From: an uncultured Bacillales bacterium
GTDB lineage: Bacteria; Bacillota_I; Bacilli_A; RF39; UBA660
Direction of reading: 5' to 3'
Assembly: GCA_946410555.1 (NCBI GenBank)
Contig: CAMKAT010000001.1
Location: 47,108 to 111,107, forward strand
DNA: 64,000 bases
In this document: positions 6,540-18,998 of the stretch, piece by piece
Layout: each line of letters opens with the position of its first letter
Position numbering within the stretch: position 1 is the stretch's first letter
Made by a program: the position numbers and the translations under genes
Notes under the pieces: generated by a model
Databases searched by the model: none
Told to the model about the DNA's origin: nothing
What the model saw: only the letters and a program-made list of their open reading frames with translations

Positions 6540-7790
6540 GTGAATAGAATGAAGAAAAGACCAATGTTATTATTAGTACTTATTATAATAGTACTTCTTA
6601 TATATATAATAAATCCTAAAGAAATAAGTGTATTTAATAAGAGGAGTTCTACATCAGATATAACTGATACAGTATCTATAAACTCCAAGAAGTTAAAGGT
6701 AACTTATTACAAAGGAAACTTAATTGATGAGAAAATTCAATATGGAAATACATTTGATAAAGTATTAAGAATAGAAAATGTAAGTGATGCACAAGTATCT
6801 TATTCAATAAACTTCTCAGATTCAGAAATTAATAATGAAAAGTTAGTATATTACATGTATTATTCTGAAGACAATTCATCATTTAAAGAACTTCAAAGAG
6901 AAAGAAGTATAACAAGAGATTATACATTAAAATATAATCTTGGATTAGAATCAGGAAAAGTAATATATATTAAAATTACATTTAAAGCTTTAGATGATGA
7001 AACTGATACTATTCTAAAGGGTAGACTTTCAATCAAAGAAAATCTAACTAAAAAAGATATTTTTATTAATGATGTAATAAGTGTTAATAATAAAATTAAT
7101 GAACGCTTTGATGAAATAAACGGAGTATCTACCCCAGGAATATTTAAAGTAAATGTTAAGTCATTAGGAATAACTGATTTATCTATTGATGGCTATGTAG
7201 TTATTGATGCAACATTCATAGCTAATATAGATTATTACTTCTATATATATAGTGATTCATATATGTTAGATGAATATAAATATGAACCATCATTTAATAA
7301 ATCAAATATTAAAGATATAGATCCTGGAATTACATCAACATTCACTGAAGATAATGTATGTTCTCTATATTCACGAAATGGTTGTTCAAACTTCTTAGAC
7401 TTAGGAATTAATACAGGTAACTCTAAGAAATCATTTAAAGAAAATGTTGAAAAAGTAATAGATTTAGTTAAAGATTCTTTTGATACTTCAAGAAGAAGTA
7501 TTGTAGTAGTTAATGTAGAAAGTGATATTCAAAATCCAACTGATGTCAGAGGATTCATCCTTATTGATAATAGGGAAGGAAAGGCTGAATATTACCTATA
7601 TCTAACAGATAATTACTTTATGATCTCAGGATATAATATAACTAAACTTGGAGCAATTCTTACAAGTAATCCAACTATAAAAACGTTTGTAATAGATTCC
7701 TATAATTTATCTAGTGAATCAGCGCAAACAGTATGTTCATTCACAGGACTTGGAGAATGTGAAGATTATTCAGGAAATAGTTTAAACTAA
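6540..7790 (+). CDS. Hypothetical secreted or membrane-anchored protein (N-terminal signal anchor, beta-rich extracellular region)
   Basis: Hydrophobic N-terminus LLLVLIIIVLLIYIIN; no recognisable catalytic motifs. Confidence 0.4.
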   Translation: MNRMKKRPMLLLVLIIIVLLIYIINPKEISVFNKRSSTSDITDTVSINSKKLKVTYYKGNLIDEKIQYGNTFDKVLRIENVSDAQVSYSINFSDSEINNEKLVYYMYYSEDNSSFKELQRERSITRDYTLKYNLGLESGKVIYIKITFKALDDETDTILKGRLSIKENLTKKDIFINDVISVNNKINERFDEINGVSTPGIFKVNVKSLGITDLSIDGYVVIDATFIANIDYYFYIYSDSYMLDEYKYEPSFNKSNIKDIDPGITSTFTEDNVCSLYSRNGCSNFLDLGINTGNSKKSFKENVEKVIDLVKDSFDTSRRSIVVVNVESDIQNPTDVRGFILIDNREGKAEYYLYLTDNYFMISGYNITKLGAILTSNPTIKTFVIDSYNLSSESAQTVCSFTGLGECEDYSGNSLN

Positions 7791-9700: not shown

Positions 9701-9760
9701 AGAATAGAATTAACTTTATTATTATGATAGAATTATTTTAAGAATAGGGTGATGTGTGAT

Positions 9761-12169
9761 ATGGCAAACTTACAAGATCATTTTAAATTTGATTATAAGA
9801 AAATACTTCCTAATGTAAGTAATATCATTCAAGGTAAAAAATATAGAATTACAGTACTTAGTGAACTTTTAGTTAGACTAGAGTATTCAGAAACTGGTGA
9901 ATTTGAAGATAGACCAACTGAACTTGTTCAAACTAGAAAGTTTCCTAATATTAAATTTGATAAAAAAGAAGATAATAATTACTTATATATAACAACTAGT
10001 TATTTCAAACTTTATTATAGAAAAGAATTTCCTTTCTTAGGAACAAAAATGTCACCTGAACAAAATTTAAAAATAGAATTAACTAATACTGATAAGTATT
10101 GGTATTTTAATCATCCTGAAGTAAGAAACTTTGGAACTGTTGGTTATTCACTTGAAGGTAAGATGGGTTCTCCAAAGTATGAAAAAGGATTATACTCAGT
10201 TGATGGATTTGTATCTTTAGATGACTCTAAGAGTTTAATATTTAATGAAGATGGTTCTTTAGGTAAAAGAACTGATACAAGAATAGATACTTATGTATTT
10301 ATGTATCGAAGAGACTTTGGAGCTTGTCTTAAAGATTACTTTACTTTAACAGGTTATCCTCCATTAATACCAAGATATTCTCTAGGTGTATGGTGGAATA
10401 GAAATACAGAATATAATTCAAAAGGTATAGAAAAGTTAGTACATAAATTTACTAAACATAGAATACCTGTATCAATAATCATGTTAGGAGATCATTGGCA
10501 TCGTAAAAATCCTAAGATGCAATCTGGATTATCTTTTGATGAAACATTATTCAAGAGACCTAAGAGAATGACAGACTTCCTTCATGGAAGAAACATCAGA
10601 CTTGCACTTAAAATTAATCCAAACGAAGGTATATCTCCAAAAGAAGATTACTATTTACCGTTCAAAGCAGCCAGTGGTGCCGAAGGCAATGGTGTTATTC
10701 CATTTAATGTATTTAATGTAAATATATTATCTGCATACTTTGATTATTTTATTCATCCATTAATGAATTATGGAGTAGACTTCTTCTGGCTTGATTATAA
10801 TAATAAAAATGATTTAGCTACTTTAAGAGCGTTAACTCATTATCATTTTGATGATTTTAAACAAATCGTTAACAGGAGAGGTATGACTTTCTCAAGAAAT
10901 GGTATGATTGCAGCTCATAAATACCCAATTCATTACACTGGTGAAACAGATGTAAATTGGAAGAACTTAGAAGCAATGCCACATTATAATGCAGCGGCTT
11001 CAAATATAGGTATTTCATGGATATCAAATGATATTGGTGGATTCAAAAATGGAACTGAAGATGGAGAGTTATTCTCAAGGTTTGTTCAATTTGGATGTTT
11101 CTCACCAATACTTAGACTTTCAGCTGATGAAGGTGAGTATTATAAAAGAGAACCATGGAAATGGGATATTCAAACTCAAGCAATTGTATCTAGATATTTA
11201 AAACTTAGACACGAGCTTATACCTTATTTATATAGTGAAGCATATAGATATCATAAAGTTGGTATGCCACTAGTACAACCACTTTATTATCAAAACCCAG
11301 AAATCTATGATGAACCACTTTATAGAAATGAATATATATTTGGTTCTTCATTATTAGTAGCTCCAATAACTACTAAAGATGATCCATTAATGAATAGAGC
11401 AGTTGTTAAACTTGCGCTACCTGATGGAGTTTGGTATGACTTTACTAATGGAAAAAAGTTTACTGGCGGAAGAAGATATACAACATTCTATAAAGATGAA
11501 GATTATCCAGTATTTGCTAAGGCAGGAACAATTCTTCCTTTAGCAATTCTTGATGAGAATGATTTAAATAATACAGATGCACCAAGAGCAATGGAAATCC
11601 AAGCATTCCCTGGAGATTCTTGTACATATGAGTTATATGAGGATGATGGTGTATCATCATTATATGAAAAAGATTTCTTTATACTTACTGAAATCGATTA
11701 TACATATCAAAAAAATAATGTAACAATTTCTATAAGACCTGTTGCAGGTAAGAGTGGTATTATTCCTCCTTATAGAAGTTATCGTTTAAGATTTAGAAAT
11801 ATGAATGAACCTAATGAAATATCAGCAATGAGTGGTTCAGATAAAGTAACTATCACAGATGCTTATGTAGATGATAATGACTTTGTAGTAGAGCTACCTC
11901 CATTATCAACATTAAAGCAAATTACAGTTAACTGTAAGGGTGATGATTTAGAGTTAAATCAAGAGAGACTTATTAACTATGATATTGAATCTATTCTTAG
12001 CGATTTACCAATACCTACGAAAGTTAAGAACATGATAGGTGATATTCTTCTTAAAGATACATCAGTTCAAGAAAAACGTATCGCAGTACGTAAGTTATCT
12101 AGAATTGGATTAAATCAAAAATATGTTAACTTATTCTTAAAACTTCTTGAATATATGGCAGAAGTGTAA
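9761..12169 (+). CDS. Glycoside hydrolase family 31 (alpha-glucosidase or alpha-xylosidase like)
   Basis: GH31-like signatures FFWLDYN (nucleophile region) and SNDIGGF (acid/base region). Start moved to the ATG at 9761, which follows RBS AGGGTGA; the track start is a GTG inside that RBS. Confidence 0.75.
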   Translation: MANLQDHFKFDYKKILPNVSNIIQGKKYRITVLSELLVRLEYSETGEFEDRPTELVQTRKFPNIKFDKKEDNNYLYITTSYFKLYYRKEFPFLGTKMSPEQNLKIELTNTDKYWYFNHPEVRNFGTVGYSLEGKMGSPKYEKGLYSVDGFVSLDDSKSLIFNEDGSLGKRTDTRIDTYVFMYRRDFGACLKDYFTLTGYPPLIPRYSLGVWWNRNTEYNSKGIEKLVHKFTKHRIPVSIIMLGDHWHRKNPKMQSGLSFDETLFKRPKRMTDFLHGRNIRLALKINPNEGISPKEDYYLPFKAASGAEGNGVIPFNVFNVNILSAYFDYFIHPLMNYGVDFFWLDYNNKNDLATLRALTHYHFDDFKQIVNRRGMTFSRNGMIAAHKYPIHYTGETDVNWKNLEAMPHYNAAASNIGISWISNDIGGFKNGTEDGELFSRFVQFGCFSPILRLSADEGEYYKREPWKWDIQTQAIVSRYLKLRHELIPYLYSEAYRYHKVGMPLVQPLYYQNPEIYDEPLYRNEYIFGSSLLVAPITTKDDPLMNRAVVKLALPDGVWYDFTNGKKFTGGRRYTTFYKDEDYPVFAKAGTILPLAILDENDLNNTDAPRAMEIQAFPGDSCTYELYEDDGVSSLYEKDFFILTEIDYTYQKNNVTISIRPVAGKSGIIPPYRSYRLRFRNMNEPNEISAMSGSDKVTITDAYVDDNDFVVELPPLSTLKQITVNCKGDDLELNQERLINYDIESILSDLPIPTKVKNMIGDILLKDTSVQEKRIAVRKLSRIGLNQKYVNLFLKLLEYMAEV

Positions 12170-12280: not shown

Positions 12281-13885
12281 ATGAAAAATGTTTTTAAAAA
12301 GATTGGTAAAAGTGCATTAGCTTTATCTATTCTAGCTAATACATTTACACCACTTGCAGTTACGGCTGACGTTACACCGGTACCTGCAACAATAACTTTT
12401 ACAGTAACAGATACAGCAAAATACAAGATAACTAAAAATAATAATAATGATCCATTTGAATTAGTTGTAACAGATAAAACTGATACTAATACTGAAACTA
12501 ATAATTCACGTATTAGAGTTAAAACTGGTAATGGAGAAGTTAATGAAGGAATATCTGCTACATGTACAACAGAAAACGTTACATGTAAATTTGTAATTGA
12601 AAGTGTTGGAGAATATTCTTTAGATTATAATCCTGGATTTATTGATATAAGTGAAGGAACAAGTAAAATAGATGATAAGGCTAAATTTGTAGGAAATAAA
12701 GACTTCTCAATTTCACAAGCAACAATGGGTCCAAGTTTTGATGGACATGCAGTTCTTGTATGGTCATGCGGAGAATCAGAAGCAAAGGTTTGTTATCATG
12801 AATATACTCATTTAAATGAAGAAGGTCATGATGTAATCTTTGAATCAGCAGCTAATATCGCAGATGATCATGATTCAAGTGAAAAATTTAATGTAGATGC
12901 TAAAGTTAAATTCTTCTCACCTTGGGAATTATTTGAACCTAAGAAAATAGATATAGATAAACAAGCTACAACTCCAATAGATCCTGAATCTTTAGTTGGA
13001 CCTGATGGAATTGATTATATGCCAGTTGGAGAACCAACTGAAAACAACGCATTTGTATCATATGGTAATAGAAACTTTAAAGCAATTATTTATGGTGATA
13101 AGTATAAAGCTCTTAAGATTGGAGATTTATCAACATTAACTTACTATCCAGGAGCTTGGGAAAATAAACTAACAAGAAGAGAATCATTTGATATCTCAGG
13201 AACTACTAAAGAAAATCCAACGGAATTTGATATGGTTTTACTAGAATCTAAAATTAATCTTCAAAAAATAGATTTAAATGGATTTACTATTAAATCAATT
13301 GAAGCATTAGATGTACCTGAAGGTGCTGTAACAATCACTAAAAAAGGTGATGGATCTTATGATTTTGATTTCGCATCAAGATTCTTTAACAAAGTAGTAT
13401 TTAAATTAACTGATGAAGATGATAAAGAATACTTCTTCAGAATTAATAGACAAGCTATGGCAATTGATGTTGATGGAGATAAAGTACATAATTGGACTAT
13501 TACTAGTGAATTATATTTTGATAGAAATACATCATGGGAAGATTACTCAGTAAATGCTAGAATTCTTTATAAAGATGGTTCTGCGAAAATAGTTAAATTA
13601 TATAATGCTAAACATATTGATGATGGTTTAGGAAATGGTGCAGATGTTTATGAAAATGATGAACAAAGTCCAGTAAGACCTGAATGGCCAAAAGGAAAAG
13701 GATTAAAAAGAGCAGTTTTCAAAACTAAAATTGATAATTCAGAAATGTTAAATGTTGATAAGATTTACATAAATGTAGAAATGAATGGAAGTACAGATTC
13801 TACTTATGCTGGTAACTATGCTGGTAGTGGAAAAGGTGAAATTATCGATATGACTGAAGAAGGATATCAAAGGAGAATGAAATAA
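12281..13885 (+). CDS. Secreted surface-associated protein of unknown function
   Basis: Signal peptide KSALALSILANTFTPLAVTA; 534 aa, beta-rich; RBS ATAGGAGGAAG. Confidence 0.5.
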   Translation: MKNVFKKIGKSALALSILANTFTPLAVTADVTPVPATITFTVTDTAKYKITKNNNNDPFELVVTDKTDTNTETNNSRIRVKTGNGEVNEGISATCTTENVTCKFVIESVGEYSLDYNPGFIDISEGTSKIDDKAKFVGNKDFSISQATMGPSFDGHAVLVWSCGESEAKVCYHEYTHLNEEGHDVIFESAANIADDHDSSEKFNVDAKVKFFSPWELFEPKKIDIDKQATTPIDPESLVGPDGIDYMPVGEPTENNAFVSYGNRNFKAIIYGDKYKALKIGDLSTLTYYPGAWENKLTRRESFDISGTTKENPTEFDMVLLESKINLQKIDLNGFTIKSIEALDVPEGAVTITKKGDGSYDFDFASRFFNKVVFKLTDEDDKEYFFRINRQAMAIDVDGDKVHNWTITSELYFDRNTSWEDYSVNARILYKDGSAKIVKLYNAKHIDDGLGNGADVYENDEQSPVRPEWPKGKGLKRAVFKTKIDNSEMLNVDKIYINVEMNGSTDSTYAGNYAGSGKGEIIDMTEEGYQRRMK

Positions 13886-14442
13886 TGAAAAAGATAATTG
13901 TATTATTATTACTATTAGTACTTCCAGTAACAGTATTCGCAGCTGAAGCTCCTAAAGTAACAAAATTAGAATTAAAAAATGATAAACAAGTAATTACATA
14001 TACTGGTGAAATGGAAGACGGATCACTTGCAGTTATGTGTAAATTATATAATTCTAATAATGAAGAATTAGACTACTTATCAACTGCTGTAGATACAAAT
14101 AAATTCGAAGGAAAATTTACAGTATCTAAAAATGATACATATAAAGTATCATGTGCTAACTATGAAGGTGGAGATATTAAATCTGAAACTATTAAAGTAG
14201 CAAATGCAAATCCAAAAACTGGAGATGAAGTAGAAATTTATTGTATAGTATTTGCAGTTTCAGTTGCAGCTGTTGTTATTGCTTTAATGTATCCTAAATA
14301 CTTAAAGAAAAATAGAAAATCAACTGCGCCAGCAGTTAAGAGATCAACAACTAAAAAAACTACTACACCAAAGAAAACAACTACAACTAAGAAAGCAGCT
14401 ACAAAGAAAACAACTGCTAAAAAGACAACAAAAAAGAAATAA
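13885..14442 (+). CDS. Cell-surface protein with the sortase-type sorting signal NPKTGDE, followed by a TM segment and a long K/T-rich basic tail
   Basis: Signal peptide, then NPKTG motif, hydrophobic stretch and KKNRK, plus a 40-aa TKK-repeat tail. Translationally coupled to the upstream ORF (ATAATG). Confidence 0.55.
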   Translation: MKKIIVLLLLLVLPVTVFAAEAPKVTKLELKNDKQVITYTGEMEDGSLAVMCKLYNSNNEELDYLSTAVDTNKFEGKFTVSKNDTYKVSCANYEGGDIKSETIKVANANPKTGDEVEIYCIVFAVSVAAVVIALMYPKYLKKNRKSTAPAVKRSTTKKTTTPKKTTTTKKAATKKTTAKKTTKKK

Positions 14443-14445
14443 GAT

Positions 14446-14476
14446 GAAACTCAAGATTAATTCTTGAGTTTTTTTA
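14446..14476 (+). terminator. Rho-independent terminator
   Basis: AACTCAAGA-TTAA-TTCTTGAGTT followed by T7. Confidence 0.7.
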
Positions 14477-14607
14477 TGTTTCTACATTTATATTCTTCAA
14501 ATGAATTTATAATTGCTAGAAAATATATTCTTATTTCTAATATGTAAACTATATAAGTGATACAAATGATTAAAGTATTTAAATGATATAATTATTAAGG
14601 TGAGATT

Positions 14608-15135
14608 ATGCAAAAGAAGAAATACAGCTTTTATGAAATAATAACTATTATTTGGTTTATATATGTATTAATTGGTGCTATATCATTAATACCTACATAT
14701 CTAAATATAAAATTCGGATTAGAAATGCCTTATATTATAGATTATATTATTGAACCAGTTTCAAATGTGTTTACATTAACATTTGTTTATTCTCCATATG
14801 TATATCTATTATTATGTTTATTTGATCCACATGAGAAACCATTTAATTTTAAATATGTAATTATTAATATAATAGATTCTATACTTTGTTTCTTTACTAT
14901 TATAATTTATCCATTTCCATTTGGAATATTCTTATATGAAGACCACAGAGTAATCTTTTATTGTTTAAGTTTATTCTTTGCATTCTTCCCTGTAGTAGTA
15001 GAAAATTATATGTATAATAAAATCTCTAATAAGAATAGTTTTAAAGTAATAACAAGATTATTAATGATATTTATAATAATAGTAATAGCTTTAATTCTTT
15101 CTTCATGCAATGGATTAGGAGATAACTTTGGATAA
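14608..15135 (+). CDS. Polytopic membrane protein of unknown function
   Basis: Four to five hydrophobic helices, 175 aa. Confidence 0.4.
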   Translation: MQKKKYSFYEIITIIWFIYVLIGAISLIPTYLNIKFGLEMPYIIDYIIEPVSNVFTLTFVYSPYVYLLLCLFDPHEKPFNFKYVIINIIDSILCFFTIIIYPFPFGIFLYEDHRVIFYCLSLFFAFFPVVVENYMYNKISNKNSFKVITRLLMIFIIIVIALILSSCNGLGDNFG

Positions 15136-15143
15136 AATAATAC

Positions 15144-15171
15144 TTGAAACTATATAATTAATTATGTATAA
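15144..15171 (+). promoter_or_regulatory. SigA-type promoter for the T-box-leuS operon
   Basis: -35 TTGAAA, 16-nt spacer, extended -10 TGTATAAT. Confidence 0.5.
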
Positions 15172-15177
15172 TGTGTT

Positions 15178-15370
15178 TTAAGCAAGTGAAGGAAAAGTAG
15201 TAGTTTACAGAGTACTTAAAGAGAGTTCACGGTTGGTGTAAGTGAATAGTATGAAGTTTATGAACTTGTTTCTGGATGTATTAGGATGAACCCTTTATAG
15301 TTCAATAAAGTATAAAATTAAGGTGGTACCACGGTCTTTCGTCCTTTGGATGAAAGGCTTTTTTTATTTT
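15178..15370 (+). ncRNA. T-box riboswitch leader (leucine, specifier CUU)
   Basis: Conserved T-box AATTAAGGTGGTACCACGG at 15316-15334; candidate specifier CTT at 15215-15217 followed by AAGAGAG; terminator hairpin and T7 run at about 15335-15370. Confidence 0.8.
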
Positions 15371-15385
15371 AAGGAGGAATTAATT

Positions 15386-15745
15386 ATGAATACAATAGGT
15401 TATATATTTGTATGTTTACTTATCTTTATAGTAGTGCTCTCATTCTTAAGACTCGTTACTATTATGAATGTTAAGAAGAAAACTGAAGAGATTTCTGTAC
15501 CTTTAAAATATATTAAGAAAAAATATAATTTAAAGTTTAGAGAAAGAAAATCAAAACAAGTACGATTATATATTGATATAGTAAATACTATAGCAATAGT
15601 AATACCAGTATATTTATTACTGTTTATTGATTTAAAAATAAATAAAATATTATTATATTTAATCATGTTAATTGTATTCATAGTACTAGTTATTAGTGGA
15701 TATAATTTAATAGGTATAATCATGAAGAGAAAGGACGATAAATAA
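15386..15745 (+). CDS. Small 3-TM membrane protein (119 aa) lying between the T-box and leuS
   Basis: RBS AAGGAGG 8 nt upstream of the ATG; stop overlaps the leuS ATG (TAATG). The track start at 15323 (MVPR) lies inside the T-box motif ATGGTACCACG and is an artefact. Confidence 0.55.
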   Translation: MNTIGYIFVCLLIFIVVLSFLRLVTIMNVKKKTEEISVPLKYIKKKYNLKFRERKSKQVRLYIDIVNTIAIVIPVYLLLFIDLKINKILLYLIMLIVFIVLVISGYNLIGIIMKRKDDK

Positions 15746-18156
15746 TGGAATATAATTTTAAAGAAATTGAAAAAAAGTGGCAAAAATATTGGGATGATAA
15801 GAAAACATTTGAATGCAAAAATGAAGGTAAAAATCCATACTATATCTTAGTAGAATTTCCATATCCTTCAGGAGCAGGTCTACATGTAGGACATGTAAGG
15901 AGTTATACTGCACAAGATGCAATCGCAAGAATGATGCGTATGCAAGGTCACAATGTATTATATCCAATGGGATGGGATGCATTTGGTGCACCAGCAGAAC
16001 AATATGCAATTAAGAATCATATTCATCCAAAAGATGCCGTAAGAGAAAATATTAAAACATTTAAAACTCAAATGAAGACTCTAGGTTTCTCATTTGATTG
16101 GAGTAGAGAATTCTCTACAACTGACCCAGATTACTATAAATGGACTCAATGGCAATTCCTACAATTTTATAAACATGGAATGGCTTATAAAGATACAATT
16201 CCAGTAAATTGGTGTCCACAATGTAAGACTGTACTTTCAAATGAAGATGCAGCAGGTGGAGTATGTGAAAGATGTGGTTCATCTGTAGTTCAAAAAGAAA
16301 AGAGTCAATGGATGTTAAAGATGTCTTCTTATTCAGAAGATCTACTTACTGGTCTTGCAGATACTAATTTTGCAGATAAAGTAAAACTAGCTCAAATTAA
16401 CTGGATCGGTAAATCTACAGGTGTAGAAGTTAATGTTGATATTGTAGGTGGAGGTAAGTTTAGTATATTTACTACTTGTCCAGAAACTATTTATGGTATT
16501 ACATTCTTTGTAATAGCTCCAGATGGAAAACTAATTAAAGAACTTATGCCAAGAGTAGAAAATCCAGATGAAATTAATAAATACATTGAAGAAACTAAAA
16601 AGAAATCTGCAATGGATAGAACTGAACTTAATAAAGGTAAAACTGGTGTAGAAGTTAAAGGTATTAAAGCTATTAATCCAGTTAATGGAAAAGAAGTTCC
16701 AATCTTCCTTGGAGACTTTGTACTTGGAGATTATGGTACAGGTGCAGTTATGGCTGTTCCTTCACATGATCAAAGAGACTTTGAATATGCTAAAGAACAC
16801 AATCTAGAAATTATTAAAGTAATAGACTGTGGTGATATTACAGAACATGCTATTGAAAAGACAGAATACATGCATCATGATTATAAGATGATTAATTCTG
16901 AAGAATTTAATGGTATGGTAGTAGATGAAGCAAGAGAAAGAATCTCTGATATGCTTGAAGAAAAAGGTATAGGTAAGAGAGTTAATAATTATAAAATGAG
17001 GGACTGGATCTTCTCTAGACAAAGATTCTGGGGTGAACCAATTCCAATGATTAACTGTCCTGACTGTGGTTGGGTACCAGTTCCTGAAGAAGAATTACCT
17101 CTATTACTTCCAGATGTAGCAGAATATGAACCAACTGATAATGGTGAATCTCCACTTGCAAAGATTACTGATTGGGTAAATTGCAAATGTCCAAAGTGTG
17201 GTAAAGATGCAACAAGAGAAACAGATACAATGCCAAACTGGGCAGGTTCTTCATGGTACTTCCTAAGATTTATGGATGCACATAATGATAAAGAATTCGC
17301 ATCAATGGATGCAATGAAATATTGGAACAAGGTTAATTGGTATAATGGTGGAATGGAACATGCTGCTAGACACTTACTATATGCAAGATTCTGGGTTCAA
17401 TTCTTATATAATATTGGTTTAGTTCCAAATAAAGAAATGATTGACACAAGAGTATCTCATGGTATGGTACTTGGATCAAATAATGAAAAAATGTCTAAAT
17501 CTAAGGGTAATGTAATTAATCCTGATGATATAGCAAATGAATTTGGTGCAGATACTCTAAGAGTTTATGAAATGTTCATGGGTGATTATCAACAAGATGC
17601 ACCATGGAGTACAGATTCTTTAAAGGGATGCAAACGTTTTATAGATAAAGTAATAAGAATTAAAGATAAAGTAACTGATTCAGAAGAATATACTAAATCA
17701 CTTGAATCTATTCAACATAAAACTATTAAGAAAGTTCAAGAAGATTTAAAAACTATGGGTTACAACACAGCAGTCAGTGCATTAATGATTTTAACTAATG
17801 CATATGATGATCAAGAAACTATTACTAAAGCAGATTATAGATTACTATTAACTCTATTAAATCCAATTGCGCCTCATGTAACTGAAGAGTTAAATGAACA
17901 ATTAGGATATAAGCCAATCTGTGAATCAACTTGGCCAACATATGATGAATCAAAAACTATTGAAACTGAAAAAGAAATTGGAGTTCAAGTTAATGGTAAA
18001 CTTAGAGCTACTATTAAAGTTAATGTAGATGATTCAGAAGATTCATTAAAAGAAAAAGCATTGAAAGAAGAAAATGTTAAAAAGTTTACTGATGGTCATG
18101 AAATAGTTAAAGTAATAGCTATCAAAGGTAGAATTGTTAATATCGTTGTTAAATAA
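15745..18156 (+). CDS. leuS: Leucyl-tRNA synthetase
   Basis: HIGH motif (PYPSGAGLHVGH), KMSKS (KMSKSKGN), editing domain, 803 aa. Confidence 0.97.
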   Translation: MEYNFKEIEKKWQKYWDDKKTFECKNEGKNPYYILVEFPYPSGAGLHVGHVRSYTAQDAIARMMRMQGHNVLYPMGWDAFGAPAEQYAIKNHIHPKDAVRENIKTFKTQMKTLGFSFDWSREFSTTDPDYYKWTQWQFLQFYKHGMAYKDTIPVNWCPQCKTVLSNEDAAGGVCERCGSSVVQKEKSQWMLKMSSYSEDLLTGLADTNFADKVKLAQINWIGKSTGVEVNVDIVGGGKFSIFTTCPETIYGITFFVIAPDGKLIKELMPRVENPDEINKYIEETKKKSAMDRTELNKGKTGVEVKGIKAINPVNGKEVPIFLGDFVLGDYGTGAVMAVPSHDQRDFEYAKEHNLEIIKVIDCGDITEHAIEKTEYMHHDYKMINSEEFNGMVVDEARERISDMLEEKGIGKRVNNYKMRDWIFSRQRFWGEPIPMINCPDCGWVPVPEEELPLLLPDVAEYEPTDNGESPLAKITDWVNCKCPKCGKDATRETDTMPNWAGSSWYFLRFMDAHNDKEFASMDAMKYWNKVNWYNGGMEHAARHLLYARFWVQFLYNIGLVPNKEMIDTRVSHGMVLGSNNEKMSKSKGNVINPDDIANEFGADTLRVYEMFMGDYQQDAPWSTDSLKGCKRFIDKVIRIKDKVTDSEEYTKSLESIQHKTIKKVQEDLKTMGYNTAVSALMILTNAYDDQETITKADYRLLLTLLNPIAPHVTEELNEQLGYKPICESTWPTYDESKTIETEKEIGVQVNGKLRATIKVNVDDSEDSLKEKALKEENVKKFTDGHEIVKVIAIKGRIVNIVVK

Positions 18157-18181
18157 GGAAGTTAATCTTCCTTATTTTTTA
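18155..18181 (+). terminator. Rho-independent terminator of leuS
   Basis: AAGGAAG-TTAAT-CTTCCTT followed by a T-run. Confidence 0.7.
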
Positions 18182-18242
18182 TTTTTTACTTAATAATTGT
18201 TACTTTGCTCTTAAAATGATAAGATAAATATGGAGAAAGCTT

Positions 18243-18998
18243 ATGAAATGTAAGAAATGTAATAGTGAAATAGAAGATAAATTATTAATATGTCCTAAAT
18301 GTGGAGCTATTTTAAAAGAAGAAAATGAGAAATATCATCATAATTATGCTAATGAATCATTGAGGTTATTTGCATCAAAATTAACTGAAGAAGAATATGA
18401 TTCTGATTATGATAATAAAACTAATCAAAGAACTTCGATTAAACCTTTATTAAAAAATAGTCTTTTTTGGATAGTTAATTTATTAGTAGTTATTTCTTTT
18501 ATAATTGTTTTATTCCTTATACATGATATTAAACATATAAATATTGGTATATTATCTTTAATATTTATTATTTATGAATTAAGTAGTATTTCATATCAAT
18601 GTTTATTTTATAAAGCATATAAAGAACCATACTATGGAATAATACCAATATATAGACTTAAAGTATTATTTGAGATATGTAATAACGAAGGAAGTACAAA
18701 AAACTCAAGAACTTTGTTAGGTATTATTTTAGCTTATGTAATATGGTATTTACTATCTTTTTCACCAATGTATGGTCTTTGGTTTATATTCTTTGAAGAA
18801 GCATTTATTATAATTACAATTGTATCGATTATTCTTTATATAAGATTACGTATTAAAGTGCTAGGGGATTTATCTATGAGATTTACATCTAACCAAAAAT
18901 CTAGTATATATGCTATTCTTTTTCCATATATAGTAATATCAATTTATGCTTTTAGTAGTAAATATAAATATACTAAACTAAATGATTCTTATCTATAA
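18243..18998 (+). CDS. Membrane protein with an N-terminal CxxC-x-CxxC zinc ribbon
   Basis: KCNSEIEDKLLICPKCG at the N-terminus, then four TM helices. Confidence 0.45.
   Translation: MKCKKCNSEIEDKLLICPKCGAILKEENEKYHHNYANESLRLFASKLTEEEYDSDYDNKTNQRTSIKPLLKNSLFWIVNLLVVISFIIVLFLIHDIKHINIGILSLIFIIYELSSISYQCLFYKAYKEPYYGIIPIYRLKVLFEICNNEGSTKNSRTLLGIILAYVIWYLLSFSPMYGLWFIFFEEAFIIITIVSIILYIRLRIKVLGDLSMRFTSNQKSSIYAILFPYIVISIYAFSSKYKYTKLNDSYL

Follow-up and report, generated by a model that had tools for sequence, protein, structure and literature searches.

An otherwise standard T-box/aminoacyl-tRNA synthetase (aaRS) operon carries, in an uncultured Bacillales bacterium and in most of the clade around it, a conserved extra first cistron that encodes a small membrane protein of an undescribed family. 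The gene lies directly 5' of leuS, and the association of the two dates back to the common ancestor of a large low-GC clade of uncultured gut Bacilli. Why place a membrane protein ahead of a leucyl-tRNA synthetase (LeuRS)? Our best explanation, which we hold to be reasonably probable, is a two-gene operon under a tRNA-Leu-sensing T-box in which the linkage is mainly one of expression. This retains the core of an earlier note on the same DNA, which had read a Leu T-box ahead of a three-transmembrane (three-TM) mini-protein gene overlapping leuS.

The window, by which we mean the whole stretch of DNA analysed, comprises 64,000 nt of assembly GCA_946410555.1 (contig CAMKAT010000001.1, positions 47,108-111,107, forward strand), assigned by GTDB to Bacteria; Bacillota_I; Bacilli_A; RF39; UBA660. 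On the + strand, the operon runs from promoter through Leu T-box, terminator, Shine-Dalgarno sequence (SD), 119-codon ORF and leuS to a closing terminator:

15144-15172, + strand: sigma-70-type promoter, TTGAAA, 17-nt spacer, TATAAT (11/12 consensus match)
15177-15349, + strand: T-box leader, RF00230 (Rfam, 96.3 bits, E 6.9e-20, full-length model)
15333-15370, + strand: T-box intrinsic terminator, 12-bp stem at 15333-15359 with 3-nt loop, then T-run (terminator scan, RNA fold)
15372-15378, + strand: SD of the small ORF, AAGGAGG, 7 nt 5' of its ATG (sequence reading)
15386-15745, + strand: small ORF, 119-aa three-TM membrane protein, ATG at 15386, TAA at 15743-15745 (ORF reading, homologues)
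15731-15735, + strand: weak leuS SD, AAGGA, inside the last small-ORF codons, 9 nt 5' of the leuS ATG
15745-18156, + strand: leuS, leucyl-tRNA synthetase, 803 aa, ATG at 15745 (Pfam domains)
18151-18187, + strand: operon-closing intrinsic terminator, 11-bp stem, then T-run (terminator scan)

The leucine T-box operon

The regulatory part of the operon is, by its sequence, a canonical Leu T-box, for which tRNA-Leu binding and read-through are predicted. It is the sole Rfam T-box in the 64-kb window, covers model positions 1-219 and exceeds the gathering score of 93, and it shows the other sequence-level features of RF00230 as well: a Leu specifier, a T-box sequence with the UGGN bulge, and overlap between terminator and antiterminator. 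The specifier loop GAA-CUU-G lies at 15262-15268, and an RF00230 alignment, suggested in the earlier note as a check of the specifier, places CUU at 15265-15267; in 47 aligned related leaders this column reads CUU, CUC or CUA, all Leu codons. The T-box sequence itself, GGUGGUACCACG (15322-15333), extends into the 5' side of the terminator stem, with the antiterminator pairing taken from the Rfam alignment. After the stem, TTTTTTTATTTT reaches about 15370, where the earlier note had put the end of the terminator, as terminator scan and RNA fold now do too (fold -19 kcal/mol, z -3.15). Between 15180 and 15357 the leader keeps 93-98% nucleotide identity to three relatives (L001, L002 and L005) despite a dS of about 0.7-0.9 in the flanking genes; constraint appears to act on nearly every position, unpaired ones included.

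The putative promoter is the best promoter-like match in 14400-18400 and ends 5 nt before the T-box begins, the call being a consensus match only in an AT-rich region where promoter-like sites are as numerous as expected from shuffled sequence. Promoter-like hexamers are present within the small ORF as well, at 15502-15529 and 15677-15706, but in a region with 29 such sites against 30.3 +/- 6.1 after shuffling they speak neither for nor against a separate leuS promoter. On this layout, the small ORF and leuS are very probably co-transcribed and T-box-regulated in the window. The leuS product carries the Pfam domains PF00133 (tRNA-synt_1), PF13603 (tRNA-synt_1_2, LeuRS editing, E 7.9e-57) and PF08264 (Anticodon_1), that is, the catalytic, LeuRS-specific editing and anticodon-binding domains of a class Ia LeuRS.

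At the junction, the last A of the small-ORF TAA is also the A of the leuS ATG at 15745, forming the TAATG overlap that the earlier note had described (TAA 15743-15745, ATG 15745). This is the geometry of a coupled pair, with a stop/start overlap or short spacer and the leuS SD lying within the upstream ORF. Across relatives, the leuS SD is mostly 4-5 nt long in ORF-bearing loci versus 5-7 nt in ORF-less loci, and the short embedded SD together with the overlaps makes termination-reinitiation coupling plausible. Independent initiation at leuS may also occur because folding predicts the junction RNA (15690-15790) to be unstructured (MFE -1.3 kcal/mol, z +2.2), a prediction that also speaks against sequestration of the leuS start in RNA structure, and coupling may contribute little; whether it matters materially for leuS expression seems to us evenly balanced. 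The obligatory co-translation asserted in the earlier note is therefore overstated, given the separate leuS SD in that junction RNA. Single-nucleotide stop/start overlaps also occur at window positions 1860, 8370, 13885 and 36709 and appear to be a habit of this compact genome, so TAATG alone says little. The embedded SD also explains in part a conserved K-K-K-G/E tail of the upstream protein.

A GH31 gene lies upstream of the operon at 9749-12169, and one is likewise found 5' of the block in 38 ORF-bearing loci. In most relatives the GH31 gene directly abuts the T-box; in the window, three genes outside Pfam families occupy the interval 12281-15135, encoding a 534-aa secreted-looking protein, a 185-aa protein with a K/T-rich anchored tail (the gene to which the overlap at 13885 belongs) and a 175-aa multi-transmembrane protein. 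Their products share 37-76% amino-acid identity among relatives, versus 92% for the GH31 protein compared with that of L002. Directly 3' of leuS, at 18243-18998, a gene kept in the same position in L001 (37% identity) encodes a 251-aa protein with an N-terminal zinc-ribbon (a sub-threshold Pfam match) and several hydrophobic segments. In six related loci from metagenome-assembled genomes (MAGs) labelled Bacilli, Tenericutes or Mollicutes (L086, L088, L090-L092 and L094), the sporulation genes Cse60, CotE and CotJB flank the leuS locus, and these reduced-genome gut lineages may therefore be spore formers.

The first cistron and its product

We have next to no doubt that the small ORF is a real membrane-protein gene. 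As the earlier note had read it, a 119-aa hydrophobic ORF led by AAGGAGG (15372-15378) opens at the ATG at 15386, before leuS. At the base composition of the window, 119 stop-free codons would arise by chance with a probability of about 9e-6. Ten homologues, 60-98% identical, were retrieved by protein search; nearly all are exactly 119 aa long and none has a Pfam domain. Their contigs show a uniform order of T-box motif, ORF and leuS with a 1-nt overlap. Compared with L001, L002 and L005, the ORF aligns over 119 codons free of gaps, the differences rank third, first and second by codon position (for example, 56/36/13), and dN/dS is 0.16-0.26. Across the wider family, dN/dS ranges from 0.12 to 0.39 (32 pairs), versus mostly 0.04-0.2 for leuS in the same pairs; the substitution pattern points to a fast-evolving protein under purifying selection. 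The start choice was scored, the start position is the same in relatives, and more than 55 loci keep the frame open and collinear. The conservation comparison proposed in the earlier note thus found the ORF present and conserved at the amino-acid level in relatives. An antisense ORF of 127 aa overlaps the small ORF (15400-15783, - strand); we rejected it as a gene and regard it as a by-product of composition, given that a frame of at least 100 aa is open there in just 3 of 56 related loci.

Kyte-Doolittle hydropathy gives the 119-aa protein three hydrophobic segments, and AlphaFold2, run on a 106-sequence alignment, places helices at residues 3-31, 53-80 and 87-118 plus a short helix at 38-46 (pLDDT 84.5, pTM 0.75). 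The loop at 28-60, which is rich in K/R (13 residues), holds this short amphipathic helix, and the protein ends in the tail KRKDDK; because of these two basic elements, the positive-inside rule predicts an N-terminus outside and a C-terminus inside. Conserved positions in 278 sequences, in window numbering, are E39, Y/F47, D/N50, K53, I71, I102, Y/F106, G110 and the basic tail. The conserved elements facing the cytoplasm are the amphipathic helix motif E-V-x-[YF]-L-x-x-K-[YF]-x-L-D-x-x-K, the residues Y/F106-x-x-x-G110 where TM3 ends, and the basic tail; the length of the K-rich linker is variable. Leucine makes up 15% of the protein, and its 18 Leu codons include 13 UUA and a single CUU.

A profile search collected 168 clusters at 90% identity and an exhaustive one 786 clusters at 50% identity (E <= 1e-3), all unnamed. 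Scanning 56 members singly against Pfam, NCBIfam, PHROGs and PADLOC gave no significant match, only scattered sub-threshold ones, none common to more than four members; against the PDB, the best sequence-profile E was 0.17 and the best Foldseek E 5.6. AzlD/BrnE branched-chain amino-acid exporter subunits and holins were considered as identities and rejected, there being no significant profile match, as was the JGI label 'YjjP (DUF1212)' attached to one family member, which has no Pfam support. No paralogue of the small protein turned up in the window, be it near leuS or farther off, and we found no paper linking a small membrane protein with leuS. By these searches, the small-ORF products make up an undescribed membrane-protein family.

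The ORF-leuS pair across gut Bacilli

Searching with the window LeuS against one genome per species returned 80 loci, from gut and rumen MAGs labelled Bacilli, Tenericutes, Mollicutes, Erysipelotrichaceae or 'Clostridium sp. CAG:594', with Clostridia as more distant matches. Directly 5' of leuS, about 58 of the 66 Bacilli-type loci carry a three-TM ORF of 110-171 aa. Measured in 56 loci, the spacing between ORF stop and leuS ATG is most often 0 (12 loci), +7 (10), -2 (7), -3 (5) or +10 (4), the others falling between -11 and +25 except for two outliers at -83 and +48. Even in the wider clade, the upstream ORFs remain collinear with the window protein at an identity of just 13-29%. Sampling the family by protein search, independently of leuS, told the same story from the other side: 11 of 12 members sit directly 5' of leuS, usually overlapping it, and most of the 12 follow a Leu T-box. 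The exception, P0080, occurs on 72-122 contigs between a DHH-family gene and cotE, with no T-box; it is nested in the family, at 52% identity to the ORF of L037 and 41-46% to the T-box-less subgroup. The arrangement that the earlier note called unusual is thus the rule within this lineage.

Four arrangements can be told apart. The majority have T-box, ORF and leuS in that order, with the specifier CUU but CUC in L058 and L061 and CUA in L031 and L052. In seven loci (L017, L022, L027, L039, L045, L050 and L055) the ORF precedes leuS with no Rfam T-box, and in five of them (not L022 and L045) it starts about 30-130 nt 3' of a GH31 gene. Three loci (L038, L051 and L056) have a T-box straight before leuS and no ORF, and the remaining type has neither ORF nor T-box 5' of leuS. 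In a neighbour-joining tree of LeuS, loci that lack the ORF branch from within ORF-bearing groups in at least 4-6 places, with the proviso that leuS itself is prone to replacement. In the Clostridia outgroup, a gene of about 120 aa, which from a look at its sequence we take to be RsfS-like, ends 2-4 nt before leuS. Taken together, these contexts imply that the ORF-leuS pair is old in the clade, that the T-box is not its tie and that the ORF is dispensable for LeuRS. The ORF thus appears to have been lost repeatedly, and the T-box to have been lost in several ORF-bearing lineages. The pair persists in those lineages, and the T-box is therefore not the defining link; nor was the ORF inserted ahead of leuS, as the earlier note had it, being ancestral in the clade and no recent insertion.

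Several loci depart from these arrangements. In L088 (2824-7241), a 284-aa Bro-N-domain gene stands between the T-box and the small ORF that precedes leuS, and the LeuS there is 948 aa long with a NUDIX domain match inside the synthetase. L059 (1557-2998) has a 320-aa YhcG/DUF1016 PDDEXK-nuclease gene between a T-box motif and the small ORF and leuS, a second case, beside L088, of a gene typical of mobile elements lodged in the leader. In L028 (1231-2872), a strong T-box (147.9 bits) precedes a 464-aa gene, presumably AsnRS-like by the look of its sequence, that ends 126 nt 5' of an ORF-less leuS, and L017 has an additional T-box 1.5 kb 3' of leuS (6931-7122).

The two genes of the pair do not share one history. 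The window and L001, L002 and L005 agree at 93-98% of nucleotides in the T-box and 63-71% in the ORF, and yet the window LeuS is only 55-62% identical to those of L001 and L002; between the window and L001, nucleotide identity is 93-98% in the T-box but drops to about 57% immediately after the start of leuS. Conversely, the window LeuS is 92% identical to that of L006 and about 80% identical to those of many gut Bacilli MAGs, while the L006 small ORF matches that of the window at only 33%. A second subclade shows the same pattern: the ORFs of L089-L091 are 72-79% identical to those of L046 and L094, their LeuS proteins just 55-57%. Overall, ORFs that are 63-79% identical are paired, in two separate subclades, with LeuS types that are 47-57% identical. 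We rejected alignment error as the source of the discrepancy between the window and L001 (LeuS 55%, small ORF 65%), since sliding-window identity, BLAST and dN/dS show a real second LeuS type, and dS is similar across the locus (about 0.7-0.9), so the mosaic is no artefact of very different divergence times. It looks as if a deeply divergent leuS took the place of the original one in situ, the breakpoint lying close to the ORF/leuS junction and the ORF being kept. The divergent LeuS genes lie at 3170-5584 in L001, at 6188-7456 in L002 and in L089-L091, as compared with 15745-18156 in the window and with L046 and L094. A tightly co-evolving interface between LeuRS and the small protein would be hard to reconcile with this mosaic.

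A probable expression linkage and its alternatives

Under the expression linkage that we favour, charged tRNA-Leu would allow the terminator at 15333-15359 to form, and neither gene would be expressed. By the well-established T-box mechanism, uncharged tRNA-Leu would pair through its anticodon with the CUU specifier and through its acceptor end with the T-box bulge, stabilising the antiterminator so that transcription reads through. The geometry of the transcript suggests that ribosomes would load at the strong SD, translate the 119-aa protein and stop at the UAA overlapping the leuS AUG, and that leuS would be translated in part by termination-reinitiation and in part from its own weak, accessible SD. 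Sharing the promoter, leader and ribosome traffic of leuS, the small protein would be made whenever LeuRS is made. We prefer such a linkage over a protein complex because of the nested ORF losses, the seven T-box-less loci, the unlinked P0080, the ORF/LeuS mosaic and the GH31 synteny: the GH31 gene is conserved upstream almost as well, so the whole block is simply syntenic. We infer that the small protein is unnecessary for LeuRS catalysis, and it is probably not a tightly co-evolving physical partner of LeuRS.

A doubtful but substantive alternative is that the small protein works together with LeuRS or serves leucine supply, and that the genes are arranged as they are for the sake of co-regulation by tRNA-Leu charging and stoichiometric co-translation; it could then tether LeuRS or tRNA-Leu to the membrane, or organise them there, through its polybasic cytoplasmic loop, or be a small subunit in leucine transport or sensing. 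Overlap-linked adjacency over deep divergence is a classic signature of functionally linked genes, and here adjacency to leuS and the frame overlap are kept in the 11 of 12 independently sampled members at 13-30% identity, outlasting even the T-box; a role with LeuRS or leucine therefore keeps some probability. Conservation within the protein is, moreover, concentrated on its cytoplasm-facing elements, and T-box-controlled membrane proteins are usually amino-acid-related (PMC2494555). However, the small protein resembles no transporter or known family, the ORF has repeatedly been lost while leuS stayed, and the abundant P0080 resides away from leuS, next to cotE. A co-evolving interface is made less likely by the pairing of one ORF type with LeuS types that are only 47-57% identical. 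The embedded leuS SD accounts for part of the conserved basic tail, and the GH31 gene, which has no conceivable link to LeuRS, is conserved upstream too. A direct functional link of the small protein to LeuRS or leucine is thus, in our view, unlikely. Of the three identities offered in the earlier note, the best fit is that of a conserved unknown partner of leuS in this lineage, if partner is taken to mean gene neighbour at the least; a leucine-responsive membrane factor stands solely in the sense of co-regulation by the T-box.

The third identity, a leader-like element, does not survive. If the ORF were a regulatory uORF or leader, the act of translation would matter, through stalling at Leu codons or opening of the leuS start, and the peptide would be irrelevant. 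The ORF would suit such a role in that it lies between the leader RNA and the gene under control, overlaps the leuS start with its stop and has a Leu content of 15%, but 119 codons far exceed known leader peptides, and the conserved sequence, length and three-TM architecture, the dN/dS of about 0.25 and the confident AlphaFold2 fold from the alignment indicate selection on the product. Only 1 of the 18 Leu codons is the specifier CUU and 13 are UUA, the leuS start region is not sequestered, and a family member persists away from leuS; we consider this reading very improbable. It is barely credible that chance or faulty annotation produced the open frame and that the leader is merely long: AT-rich DNA does yield I/L/F/K-rich hydrophobic-looking peptides, and the 127-aa antisense ORF is also open in the window, but a run of 119 stop-free codons (about 9e-6) that is open and collinear in more than 55 loci with a coding-type substitution pattern, opposite an antisense frame reaching 100 aa in only 3 of 56, is no such by-product.

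T-box/synthetase operons are textbook material and targets of antibiotic programmes, and to a T-box specialist the arrangement is not very surprising. The operon resembles the canonical T-box-leuS unit of Bacillus and other Firmicutes (RF00230) in its promoter, the Leu specifier in Stem I, the T-box sequence, the terminator/antiterminator pair and the regulation of leuS, and the canonical form itself is seen in the relatives L038, L051 and L056, where the T-box ends about 35-40 nt before leuS. In the window and most of the clade, by contrast, a membrane-protein gene of 110-180 aa is the first cistron and leuS the second, with its ribosome-binding site inside the first. The rtpA-ycbK (anti-TRAP) operon of B. 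subtilis likewise has a T-box that responds to tRNA charging and controls a small protein other than a synthetase along with a membrane protein; anti-TRAP, however, is a soluble zinc-binding regulator with a known target, and that operon contains no synthetase and nothing homologous to the proteins described here. Its T-box is reportedly a Trp one (Sarsero et al. 2000, cited in PMC2494555). Habitual co-transcription of leuS with a small unrelated gene is also seen in the presumed rsfS-leuS pair of Clostridia and in the leuS-lptE pair of E. coli, although RsfS is a soluble ribosome-silencing factor and LptE an outer-membrane lipoprotein, both unrelated to the small-ORF family, and neither pair is known to be T-box controlled. 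Closer in layout, 8% of T-boxes were found upstream of genes of unknown or unrelated function, and uncharacterised streptococcal hypothetical genes are listed between T-box and synthetase gene ('tRNA-ligase related hypothetical'; Wels et al. 2008, PMC2494555). Those cases belong to a different family and were not shown to be conserved, whereas the present family has 786 clusters, purifying selection and a confident fold.

The results define a new family with a clear genomic signature that appears in no database description, and they correct annotation in poorly known gut Bacilli seen solely in metagenome assemblies. Natural experiments on coupling and on a role with LeuRS are provided by lineages that have or lack the T-box, that have or lack the ORF, and that carry one or the other of the two LeuS types. 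We consider it quite improbable that these reduced-genome gut Bacilli use the small protein as a membrane-bound partner dedicated to LeuRS or tRNA-Leu; with its polybasic cytoplasmic loop and conserved amphipathic helix it might then draw either of them to the membrane, the site of synthesis of leucine-rich membrane proteins, or it might instead relay leucine status to a membrane process. If it were such a partner, it would represent a new type of bacterial synthetase accessory factor; if not, it would be a well-documented case of operon architecture keeping a gene in the leader.
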